This document shows, in pieces, positions 8,289 to 11,127 of a DNA stretch of 11,656 nucleotides. Every line of letters starts with the position of its first letter. Position 1 is the stretch's first letter. Origin of the DNA: Candidatus Odinarchaeota archaeon (GTDB lineage: Archaea > Asgardarchaeota > Odinarchaeia > Odinarchaeales > Odinarchaeaceae); the NCBI GenBank assembly GCA_038826135.1, contig JAWBON010000031.1, positions 1-11,656 on the forward strand, written 5' to 3'. Both the position numbers and the translations under genes were made by a program. Below the pieces are notes generated by a model. It was given only the letters and a program-made list of their open reading frames with translations. It made no database searches and had not been told where the DNA came from.

Positions 8289-8984
8289 TTGAAGAACTGG
8301 CAAACTGATCTTATAGAGTTTTTATCAAGGTGCGGGGCCCTCCTATTCGGGGAGTTTAAGCTTAAAAGCGGTCGTTTATCCCCGTACTTCTTTAACATAG
8401 CTAAGACTATAAGTGACGGTCGCGGTCTCCTCAGGATCGGTGAGTTTTATATTAACGGTGTATTCGACATGGTTGGCGGTGTTAAATTTAATTTTATTCT
8501 AGGACCAGCTTATAAGGCTATACCGTTAGCAGCGGCCATGTCTCTTTTACTCTACGAGAAGCATAATATACTTGTGAGGTGGGGGTATGATAGGAAAGAG
8601 GAGAAATCTTATGGTGTTGCATCTGAGAAATGGTTTGTAGGCGAATTATGTAAAGGTGATAGGCTGCTTTTAGTGGATGATGTGGCTACAACAGGTAAAA
8701 CAAAAATCGACCTTATAAATCGAGTTAGAACAGCTTTTAAAGAGCATGATTTACGTTTTCAGGGTGTTCTTATCCTATTAGACCGTGAGGAGGTTGGCGA
8801 GGATGGCAGGTATAGCGGAGATGTTTTAAAAGATGAGGGTGTGAAACTCTACTCGCTGCTAAAGGTGAGTGAAGTATTCGAATACTTATATAACCGGGTG
8901 GTTGACGGCAGGGTACTTGTATCAGATAAGGAGTATCGTTTATTCCAAGAGTATAGGCGGATGTTCGGGGTTTCTACCCGTTAG
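8289..8984 (+). CDS. pyrE: Orotate phosphoribosyltransferase
   Basis: Motifs FGEFKLKSGRLSPYFFN, GPAYKAIPLA, DRKEEKSYG and the PRPP loop LLVDDVATTGKT. TTG start with a GGTGG SD 5 nt upstream, 12 nt after the M50 stop. Confidence 0.93.
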   Translation: MKNWQTDLIEFLSRCGALLFGEFKLKSGRLSPYFFNIAKTISDGRGLLRIGEFYINGVFDMVGGVKFNFILGPAYKAIPLAAAMSLLLYEKHNILVRWGYDRKEEKSYGVASEKWFVGELCKGDRLLLVDDVATTGKTKIDLINRVRTAFKEHDLRFQGVLILLDREEVGEDGRYSGDVLKDEGVKLYSLLKVSEVFEYLYNRVVDGRVLVSDKEYRLFQEYRRMFGVSTR

Positions 8985-9648
8985 AATCCTTACGTTCGTT
9001 TTCTTCGCCTCCAGCCACCCGCTCTGTTTCTTTAAACTCTTCCTCCGTCCAAAATATTTTCTCCCCCTCGGCCGCTTTAATTTTTTCACTTTCTCCCTCT
9101 TTATAATAATCGTATACTATGTAAACTATTAATATGATTACCACTGTGATAAGCAAATATTGAAGGTAGCCTGCTACAGGTCTTAGAATCACCAGTGGGA
9201 GGCCTATTCTAGGTATTGTAAACACAACTCTGCCGATCACGTTGGAGTAGGGGGTTGGTTCAGGATCCGGGTAGGGGTTTGTATCAGGGTTTACTCCTTG
9301 AGTCCAAAAATACCATTCACCGTCGACGAATTGTTTATCAACCACGCGGTGGACTACTGGTATGTCAGAGTTAGGGTCTGTGTCAGGTATCCATGTTGCA
9401 TGGAACACTATGTCTGTGCCTATTGTTATCTCCTCTGGTGTAGCGTATTTAACGAATAATATATCTCCCTCCCAGTATACAGGGTGCATGCTTTCAGATG
9501 TTACTACAACTATTGGGGTGCTGCTTCCAAGATAGGCTGATATGGAAAAATATCCCACTCCGATAGCGGTTATTAATATGGCTATGGCTGCTAATGGTTT
9601 AATAAGCGTTTTCACCAGTTTAGGCTTACTGTGTTTTTGACTGCTCAA
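8974..9648 (-). CDS. sec11: Signal peptidase I, archaeal/ER (Sec11/S26B) type
   Basis: N-terminal TM segment, VVVTSESMHP (catalytic Ser), GDILFV, PVVHRV (catalytic His), VIGRVVFTIPRIG and a second TM segment. TTG start with a GAGGG SD. Overlaps the pyrE 3' end by 11 nt. Confidence 0.9.
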   Translation of the reverse strand: MSSQKHSKPKLVKTLIKPLAAIAILITAIGVGYFSISAYLGSSTPIVVVTSESMHPVYWEGDILFVKYATPEEITIGTDIVFHATWIPDTDPNSDIPVVHRVVDKQFVDGEWYFWTQGVNPDTNPYPDPEPTPYSNVIGRVVFTIPRIGLPLVILRPVAGYLQYLLITVVIILIVYIVYDYYKEGESEKIKAAEGEKIFWTEEEFKETERVAGGEENERKDSNG

Positions 9649-9659
9649 AATCAGCCCTC

Positions 9660-9684
9660 ACTTCACTTGAATGAGGAGTGAAGT
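9660..9684. promoter_or_regulatory. 8-bp-stem inverted repeat between the longin-like gene and signal peptidase
   Basis: ACTTCACT (9660-9667) pairs with AGTGAAGT (9677-9684) around a 9-nt loop, directly next to the signal peptidase SD. Confidence 0.45.
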
Positions 9685-9691
9685 TTTCGCT

Positions 9692-10150
9692 TTACTTTCT
9701 CTCCTCTAATTCGTTTACAAGTATTTCTATGAATGGTGGGTAGCAGCATCCTTTTAATATTTCTTCATATGATTGGATGATTTTTCTCTGTTTATAGTAG
9801 ATTTCAAGGTTTTCTTTGAATCCTTGAAGGAATGGTTTTTTAATCAATCTTAATATGTGTTTGCTGACTTTGTCCGGGATATTGCTGTTTGTTAACATGC
9901 TGAAAATTATGTTTCCCTCGTTAGCGTACCATATTTTATGACAGTTAAATCTAAGCGTATTGATTCCTCTGTGTTTTATGCTTGTATGGTAATTATGTTT
10001 TAAAGCTTCTATTAGTTTCACGTCTACTGTGTTATTGTTGTATGAGGCTAGTATGGTGCCGGCTTTATCAAATATGTATATGGCTTCAACTGCATTTTTA
10101 ATATTGCAAATCTGGTTTTTTTCAGCTGTTTCTTCATACATTTCTATCAC
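9692..10150 (-). CDS. Hypothetical protein with a longin-like (sigma/mu-adaptin or SRX-like) secondary-structure pattern
   Basis: 152-aa ORF codirectional with its neighbours and filling the gap between them. The pattern VEAIYIFDKAGTILASY / helix / INTLRF-KIWY-NIIFSMLT / two amphipathic helices fits the longin b-b-a-b-b-b-a-a order. The start may be ATG 10141 (GTGA SD 5 nt upstream). The CDS is likely real; the fold call is less certain. Confidence 0.65.
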   Translation of the reverse strand: MIEMYEETAEKNQICNIKNAVEAIYIFDKAGTILASYNNNTVDVKLIEALKHNYHTSIKHRGINTLRFNCHKIWYANEGNIIFSMLTNSNIPDKVSKHILRLIKKPFLQGFKENLEIYYKQRKIIQSYEEILKGCCYPPFIEILVNELEERK

Positions 10151-10151
10151 A

Positions 10152-10174
10152 ATTTTGTAGTAATACTACATAAT
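10152..10174. promoter_or_regulatory. 11-1-11 near-perfect palindrome upstream of the longin-like gene
   Basis: ATTTTGTAGTA-A-TACTACATAAT has a perfect 7-1-7 core and one mismatch in the flank. A minus-strand TTTTATAG box lies at 10197-10190. Confidence 0.5.
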
Positions 10175-10206
10175 AATCATACACTATTACTATAAAAACT
10201 TTACCA

Positions 10207-11127
10207 CTAAACAGGTAAAGAGTAAACAGGCATATACCCTGTAGTCTCCGCCACCACCTGTCCTTGAGGTCCCAAACACCAATCAATATAAGCTGCTATA
10301 TAACCTCGAGGAATCCCATTAGTAACCATATACAAATATCTTGCAATAGGATATGTGAAATCCTTAATATTCTCGGGGTTCGGTTCAATAGGGATGCCTG
10401 AAACCGGGTCGTTAACTGGAATAACTTTAACACTACTAGTTTGAGCGTAAGCAGCCCCCACATAACCTATACCCCTAATATCTGCCGCTACAGCATATAT
10501 AATAGCTGAGTTACCAGCTAAAGGCTGGGCACTACTAGTGTAATCGTCATTTTCCATTACATACTCTTGAAAATAACTATATGTTCCAGAGGAAGGATCA
10601 CGAGAGTAAACTATTATATTACCTAAACCTGAAAGTGTGGAGTTTACTTGACCCCACTCTGTAATAGAACCGTTATAAATACCTCTTAAAATAGGGAGGC
10701 TAATATTACTGATGGGATTACTCGGATGGACTATTATAACTATACCATCTATGCAAACAGGTATAACATGTAAATCAACACCACGACTATTGGCTAAAGC
10801 ATATTCAGATGATTTAGGAAGTCTAGAAGCGCCCGCTATGTCCACAATGCCATTGATAAGCTGGCTTATCCCAACAGATGTGCCTGCTCCTCCTACAATA
10901 ATATTCACACCAGGATTATCTTGCATGTAATAGTATGCCCAAGTGGATTGGAGTTCAAATAATGTATTTGAACCTTCAATATTTATTTGAGCTGCGAAAC
11001 CTCCGCCTCCAGGACCAACATATGTTCCTAGAAAAAACCCGCCGAGGAAACCCCCTCCAAGAGCACAGAGAAATATAAAAATAAGCAGACGTCTGCTGAA
11101 ACCTACTTGGAATTCATCCATCTCCAT
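10207..11127 (-). CDS. pstS: Phosphate ABC transporter substrate-binding protein
   Basis: N-terminal hydrophobic anchor, then IEGSNTL, GGAGTSVGISQLINGIVDIAGASR, VCIDGIVIIVHPSNP, YSRDPSSGTYSYF, IGYVG and YPIARYLYM. AGGTGA SD 4 nt before the ATG. Confidence 0.93.
   Translation of the reverse strand: MEMDEFQVGFSRRLLIFIFLCALGGGFLGGFFLGTYVGPGGGGFAAQINIEGSNTLFELQSTWAYYYMQDNPGVNIIVGGAGTSVGISQLINGIVDIAGASRLPKSSEYALANSRGVDLHVIPVCIDGIVIIVHPSNPISNISLPILRGIYNGSITEWGQVNSTLSGLGNIIVYSRDPSSGTYSYFQEYVMENDDYTSSAQPLAGNSAIIYAVAADIRGIGYVGAAYAQTSSVKVIPVNDPVSGIPIEPNPENIKDFTYPIARYLYMVTNGIPRGYIAAYIDWCLGPQGQVVAETTGYMPVYSLPV

Follow-up and report, generated by a model that had tools for sequence, protein, structure and literature searches.

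What a stand-alone longin-like protein does directly upstream of signal peptidase I is the question raised by this locus. The pair lies on the reverse strand of the window, that is, the whole stretch of 11,656 nucleotides analysed here. From this linkage an initial annotation had proposed a role for the longin in protein translocation, as a possible precursor of the SRX domain of the SRP receptor. The genes and signals around the pair are as follows.

9692..10141, (-), longin gene, 149 amino acids, ortholog of OdinLCB4_007680 / WEU40337.1
10146..10150, (-), Shine-Dalgarno core GTGAT, conserved in four Odinarchaeum species and pairing with the 3' end of the genome's 16S rRNA
9649..9691, (-), longin-sec11 spacer of 43 nt, with a Shine-Dalgarno-like GTGAGGG before the TTG of sec11 and no clear TATA box
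8974..9648, (-), sec11, archaeal signal peptidase I (TIGR02228 above cut-off, E 4.7e-25), a neighbour and possible co-transcribed passenger
8289..8984, (+), pyrE, convergent with sec11 and part of the older sec11-pyrE-M50-NAT block
10207..11127, (-), pstS, upstream neighbour; a pst operon is found here in some lineages and is missing from the position in L040, L042 and the second family

The open reading frame at 9692-10150 (-) is intact, with sec11 beginning 43 nt downstream on the same strand, and the longin gene is under purifying selection (dN 0.14-0.22 against dS 0.62-1.6 in four Odinarchaeum species). The frame annotated earlier is real and open, but the GTG at 10150 sits in the conserved GTGAT core and public gene calls use the ATG, so that translation most likely starts at ATG 10141 and gives 149 amino acids. 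The ortholog in Ca. Odinarchaeum yellowstonii, of the same genus, is OdinLCB4_007680, and the orthologous entry UniRef100_A0AAF0D2A4 is already labelled 'Longin domain-containing protein'. A functional link between pstS and the longin was considered and rejected because other lineages are without the pst operon at this position and the longin promoter begins past the pstS stop. Elsewhere in the window (792-1504, (-)) lies a nucleotidyltransferase and HEPN pair of the MNT-HEPN toxin-antitoxin type, which occupies this position in L002 and not in L001 or L003.

Of 400 Asgard genomes, all seven that belong to the Odinarchaeum order have a full-length ortholog of the longin, as have three assemblies beyond these. 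They form a single clade (support 99/94), and the family is confined to this order. The longin is directly 5' of sec11 in 10 of 10 loci of the lineage, with protein identity between families down to 21-25%. Sec11 itself was found in 340 of the 400 genomes, as a single copy in most; one Asgard genome has a tandem pair of sec11-like genes (L117/L119, G130:C227). Outside the order 58 genomes were compared, and in none of the 55 with DNA upstream of sec11 is a longin directly upstream. Longin genes near sec11 in G310, G120 and G121 were discarded as candidates, being non-adjacent and outside the family of the window longin in the tree.

The pair is part of a conserved block of seven genes (proline-rich protein, 96-aa protein, longin, sec11, pyrE, M50 peptidase and N-acetyltransferase), and in some lineages a pst operon separates the 96-aa gene from the longin. 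Along with the longin-sec11 pair, six adjacencies around it are kept as well, which means that the pair is not special. Because the whole block is conserved and longin-sec11 pairs are lacking in the 55 informative genomes outside the order, the adjacency is a lineage-specific synteny and no ancestral Asgard link prefiguring SRX; the conservation of this linkage thus holds within the order but not elsewhere. The genes sec11, pyrE, M50 and N-acetyltransferase constitute an old housekeeping block, older than the place of the longin in it. Whole or in part, this block (8289-9648 in the window) recurs without a longin in a number of further Asgard families. Selection may to some degree have acted on the pair, as the longin-sec11 order outlasted the arrival of the pst operon on the other side. 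The spacers measure 22-231 nt across loci and 22-43 nt in Odinarchaeum, where transcription from the longin promoter may extend into sec11. One clear TATA box was found among ten spacers in a scan for a separate sec11 promoter, and a hairpin in the 43-nt spacer is neither significant (z -1.2) nor conserved. The earlier remark that no GTPase gene is visible in the window stands, and none was found within 10 kb at the orthologous loci either.

The protein itself can be divided as follows.

9746..10090, (-), longin core, residues 18-132, from the AlphaFold2 model and the Foldseek and VIA-align matches
9983..10021, (-), helix alpha1, residues 41-53, degenerate and without the small-residue motif of other Asgard longins
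9737..9751, (-), GCCYP linker, residues 131-135, joining the last longin helix to the extra helix and aligning with the longin-roadblock linker of the fusions described below
9701..9739, (-), extra C-terminal amphipathic helix, residues 135-147, equivalent of the first helix of roadblock

The AlphaFold2 model, the input alignment of which took in canonical longins, has a pLDDT of 78 and displays the longin order of elements, strand-strand-helix-strand-strand-strand-helix-helix (E18-25, E30-34, H41-53, E60-65, E68-75, E78-85, H90-117 and H119-132), with one extra C-terminal helix at 135-147. The best Foldseek match has an E value of 1e-5. In VIA-align the best 31 rows all contain longins (Z 14.2-9.4), and the earliest roadblock-type rows come at Z 9.3-9.0. 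VAMP7 (Z 14.2) and Sec22b (Z 13.7) are the top matches; CPLANE, AP and COPI subunits, TRAPP and SRX form a group at Z 10-11.6, with individual SRX structures at 11.3, 10.7, 10.0 and 9.9. Of the 16 family members, 13 match PF13774 at E values of 0.1 or less (best 2.2e-6). The window protein alone gave no longin profile match in a single-sequence search, single-sequence searches of Pfam, NCBIfam and Atlas features were uninformative, and a match to the longin from the zeta-COP profile was weak (E 0.016). The longin fold postulated for this protein is confirmed by the predicted structure, by the ranking of solved longins above roadblock, PAS or GAF folds and by the matches of its family to PF13774. 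The fold as such is ordinary, longins being expected in Asgard archaea; about ten are present in the genome of the window, and their occurrence in Odin genomes was already known (PMC10933270).

The top-scoring relatives outside the order are longin-roadblock fusions of 266-272 amino acids. Loki-type fusions reach 63-68 bits on the longin core alone, compared with at most 47.5 for all other sampled longins, and hhalign aligns the longin family with the fusions (98.9%) through the last helix. The alignment is gap-free from beta3 through the extra helix, and in the fusion model the counterpart of this extra helix, at 144-155, is the one that opens the roadblock domain. A profile of the family tail finds its best match in register in all six Loki fusion copies (scores 10.9-13.5, a score of 10 being reached by 0.09% of background positions), though these copies are near-identical and the tail contributes only about 4 bits. 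The join of the family to the fusions in the tree is weak (84/77), in a sample chosen by similarity. We infer, with moderate support from these comparisons, that the window longin derives from a fusion whose roadblock core was lost and whose first roadblock helix was kept, GCCYP being the former linker. No longer fused forms of the longin were found at E 0.001, in a weak search that missed known fusions too, and no helix-less roadblock core fit to complete the spare helix was found in the genome of the window. The fusions adjoin a Rab-like GTPase or a V4R-like gene.

Related arrangements exist in other Asgard lineages. An operon at L081:1471-3252 combines a longin-roadblock fusion and a Rab-like GTPase with a helix-less roadblock core of 105 amino acids, and L082-L086 have it too; loci L081-L086 come from the Loki-type genomes G239, G177, G236, G248, G233 and G242. 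The 105-aa core of these operons is a paralog of the second domain of the fusion, and the operon reproduces the LD1-LD2-LD3 order of tri-longin Rab GEF subunits around a Rab gene (PMC6864590). The best structural matches of the L081-type fusion are HPS1/HPS4, Fuzzy and Mon1. At L087:1435-2600 and in L088 (G119, G122) a longin with an extra helix and no roadblock core lies directly 5' of a Rab-like gene; this protein retains a variant of the alpha1 motif.

The small-residue motif of alpha1 (type L-x-S-G-F-x-x-A-x-x-x-F, derived here from alignment A3) is present in 18 of 20 other Asgard longins but in none of the 16 family rows. Identity across lineages is lowest in beta3 (12%) and alpha1 (17%), and beta3 of the second family has a polar sequence instead. 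Together, beta3 and alpha1 make up the dimer interface of longins and roadblocks, and GTPases bind that face (PMC3747258). Given that these elements are the least conserved and that the motif is missing in all 16 rows, a canonical dimeric platform appears unlikely, and an adaptor that works as a monomer through its paired-helix face is the reading to be preferred over it. The conserved parts are the first hairpin, alpha2, the GCCY linker and the extra helix, with GCCYP as the best-conserved segment (53% across lineages). Of the CCYPPF motif pointed out previously, G-C-C-Y is conserved in 13 of 16 rows, but the second proline is a leucine in the three other Odinarchaeum species.

Two elements upstream of the gene suggest how it may be controlled.

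10190..10201, (-), BRE-TATA element (AAGKTTTTTATA-like), beginning right after the pstS stop, the longin's own promoter
10156..10170, no strand, palindromic operator TGTAG-N5-CTACA, about 20 nt 3' of the TATA box and over the expected transcription start

The BRE-TATA element recurs with unchanged spacing in 9 of 9 orthologous loci, whether or not pstS lies upstream. The palindrome has one match in the window, where 0.01 is expected, and is kept in every orthologous locus that has upstream DNA; no copy was found before any of 16 non-Odin longin genes. A palindrome over the transcription start and just past the TATA box has the position of a repressor site in archaeal promoters.

An operator matrix built solely from the longin promoters of other genomes gives 17 sites at a score of at least 15 in the genome of the window, compared with a mean of 2.1 and a maximum of 10 for shuffled matrices. 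All 17 are intergenic (14% of the genome is intergenic). Genes with such a site include those for actin, for two gelsolin-like proteins, for a Rab-like GTPase and for a longin fused to Arf; a further longin, a roadblock and the proline-rich neighbour have one too, as does a TrmB-Rab operon. Lower-scoring sites lie before profilin, an MglA-like GTPase and further roadblocks. Matches at 11-15 are indistinguishable from those of shuffled matrices (mean 14.5), and the profilin, MglA-like and two roadblock sites are therefore regarded as weaker members. Sites precede 7 of 36 genes of the GTPase, longin, roadblock and actin systems and 13 of 1314 others (p 3e-7); without the gelsolins, a class seeded from site-adjacent genes, the figure is 5 of 32 (p 7e-5). 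There is no direct site at 25 of the 36 GTPase/longin/roadblock-type genes. In the second family 5 of 5 sites (G299) and 5 of 6 (G298) precede longin-like, Arf-like or TrmB-Rab genes. None of srp54, ftsY and sec11 has an operator site of its own in the matrix scan (scores below 0). The apparent co-regulation of the longin with actin and GTPase genes is guilt by association.

A TrmB-family gene is coupled to a Rab-like gene at G000:C54:270-1705 (L152), and the palindrome is found upstream in both families. The TrmB-family protein, whose own operon thus carries the palindrome, is a candidate regulator and probably the repressor that would bind it. The operator also precedes a family 4 glycosyltransferase and an RPE65-family oxygenase (C17:1881; C92:2766) and lies 5' of two large proteins with signal-peptide-like N-termini and without a Pfam match (G000:C2:1687 and C59:1092; L154, L151), on account of which the programme may reach the cell surface as well. 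Neither the regulon nor the truncated longin architecture was found in the literature searched.

Two further proteins are of note beside the longin. One is a proline-rich protein of about 205 amino acids (G000:C92:2907-3530, equal to L146:1908-2531; L001:4380-4991) that begins with a coiled coil, continues in a proline-rich linker and closes with a conserved helix, at the end of which stands an LKK-type motif; this we take to recall WH2/VASP-type actin regulators. The protein is present in at least 29 of 400 Asgard genomes, has the operator in Odinarchaeum and relatives, and is encoded near an actin-related gene in several Loki-type genomes. The other is a strongly conserved protein of 90-98 amino acids and of no known family (L001:5119-5409; L141:9861-10157). 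Its gene usually adjoins the proline-rich gene across Asgard lineages and, where the pst operon is missing, lies next to the longin gene in divergent orientation.

The explanation that we favour, giving it about an even chance, is that the longin is a cytoplasmic, non-catalytic and atypical adaptor of a small-GTPase and actin programme of Odinarchaeales. A longin-roadblock fusion would have lost its roadblock core, kept the first helix and been placed ahead of sec11-pyrE-M50-NAT, the older block. At the operator the start of transcription would be blocked by a repressor, for which the TrmB-type protein is the probable candidate, and on its release the longin would be made together with actin regulators and GTPases. 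As the usual dimer and GTPase surface has decayed, the protein most likely acts as a monomer and binds a partner or a membrane via the paired-helix face, the GCCY linker and the spare amphipathic helix. Sec11 would then be a neighbour by inherited order, possibly reached by read-through from the longin promoter in Odinarchaeum and without a physical link to the longin.

A canonical platform subunit, in which alpha1 and beta3 would pair with another longin or a roadblock into a GEF or GAP platform for a small GTPase, is doubtful for the conservation pattern already described: the surface it depends on is the least conserved of the protein (alpha1 17%, beta3 12%), the alpha1 motif is missing in 16 of 16 rows, and beta3 of the second family is polar. 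This alternative is modelled on Mon1-Ccz1 and TRAPPC1/C4, and an example of a partner would be the co-regulated longin-Arf fusion, which carries the same operator in both families; a complex prediction of the longin with it, the one pair run, scored 0.01, which speaks neither for nor against the pairing. Most longin and roadblock complexes are dimeric GTPase platforms (PMC3747258), and the closest relatives, the longin-roadblock fusions, have their best structural matches in tri-longin Rab GEF subunits. Somewhat less probable again is a regulatory coupling without contact, whereby read-through from the longin promoter raises signal peptidase along with the actin/GTPase and surface programme. 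The gene order in 10 of 10 loci, the spacers of 22-59 nt in six of them, the Shine-Dalgarno-like motif before sec11 and the operators at two secreted proteins and a glycosyltransferase agree with such coupling, which is compatible with an adaptor of the GTPase and actin programme; however, four loci have spacers of 118-231 nt, one short spacer (L042) has a clear TATA box of its own, and unrelated genes are 5' of sec11 in all other Asgard lineages.

The cysteines offer a further alternative, a module in which the pair is lipidated, metal-binding or redox-sensitive and controls the spare helix and membrane association. At least one cysteine at 132/133 is found in 16 of 16 rows, within the best-conserved segment, but the pair is internal and not terminal as in Ykt6 or Rabs, a single cysteine is left in three lineages, and the remaining cysteines are at different positions in the two families; we judge this module very unlikely. 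Last comes the reading as a free-standing SRX-like module, attached to Sec11, the translocon or the SRP receptor and coupling it to an Arf-like GTPase, to which we give only a slim chance. Within the order the adjacency to sec11 is conserved, the structural matches take in SRX (Z 9.9-11.3), and SRX is a monomeric longin adapted against dimerising (PMC3747258), a parallel to the decayed alpha1 and beta3. On the other hand VAMP7 and Sec22b are about 3 Z units above SRX, the SRX Pfam family is matched by 0 of 16 members, FtsY is a plain NG protein of 302 amino acids on a separate contig with no extra domain, no longin is 5' of sec11 in 55 other Asgard genomes, the GTPase of SRX binds the alpha1 face, which is unconserved here, and SRbeta is described as eukaryote-specific (10.1101/2024.02.28.582541). 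The translocation role and the SRX precursor first suggested for the protein are not borne out: SRX is not the top structural match, there is no FtsY fusion, the nearest relatives are longin-roadblock fusions, and the longin promoter groups with actin and GTPase genes and not with srp54 or ftsY. An equally slight prospect is that the longin, as a monomeric SRX-like adaptor, forms a physical bridge from signal peptidase or the translocon to an Arf/Rab-like GTPase, its operator placing export under the actin/GTPase switch. If true, this would give archaea an equivalent of the connection that longins make between secretion and GTPase signalling; the link to sec11 is limited to one Asgard order.

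A truncated fusion without its dimer surface would be an example of how dimeric GTPase platforms could become monomeric adaptors of the SNARE-longin or SRX type. The site that brings together scattered genes of the GTPase, longin, roadblock and actin systems has one of its best-conserved copies in the longin operator. Such genes may, on a suggestion of Tran et al. (2024), be co-ordinated by transcription factors and not by operons (PMC10933270); the operator makes this testable and narrows the candidate partners of the longin.

Compared with known systems, the window longin resembles the Asgard longins of Tran et al. 2024 (PMC10933270; PDB 8YQG) in fold, size and lineage (Z 10.0 to 8YQG), but it is without the alpha1 motif, has a roadblock-derived helix and two adjacent cysteines, and genes for a GTPase or a roadblock are missing from its surroundings. 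The longin-roadblock fusions (L081-L086, L090 and L093) are closest by profile score and gap-free from beta3 to the last helix; they differ in keeping the roadblock core and the alpha1 motif, in their Rab-like or V4R-like neighbours and in having no operator match. The longin domains of VAMP7 and Sec22b (PDB 4AFI and 3EGD) superpose with an rmsd of about 3 A over 123 residues at 12-14% identity and are monomeric longins followed by a further helix, as the window longin most likely is too. Unlike the R-SNAREs, the window longin lacks a SNARE motif, a transmembrane anchor and a terminal prenylation motif; only 17 residues follow the longin core, with no synaptobrevin match and no transmembrane segment.

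SRX of the SRP receptor alpha subunit (PDB 1NRJ, 2GO5, 5CK3 and 6FRK) shares the longin fold, and the window longin is possibly monomeric likewise, but it stands alone in all orthologous loci with no fusion to an NG GTPase, its alpha1 face is unconserved, SRX scores below the SNARE longins in Z, and the lineage is without a known SRbeta. The window longin corresponds to LD1 and the first LD2 helix of the tri-longin Rab GEF subunits (Mon1/Ccz1, HPS1/HPS4 and Fuzzy/Inturned; PMC6864590), which have three domains instead of one domain and one helix; the dimer surface of LD1 is unconserved here. The protein falls outside SRX, the longin SNAREs, the tri-longin GEF subunits and the motif-bearing Asgard longins. 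The TrmB-family regulons of archaea are known for the control of sugar metabolism. The putative Odin regulon is like them in its palindrome just past the TATA box, the position of a repressor site, and in the site before a TrmB-family gene, but its putative targets are cytoskeletal and GTPase genes. The window longin belongs to the longin superfamily and most likely works like other GTPase-associated longins.
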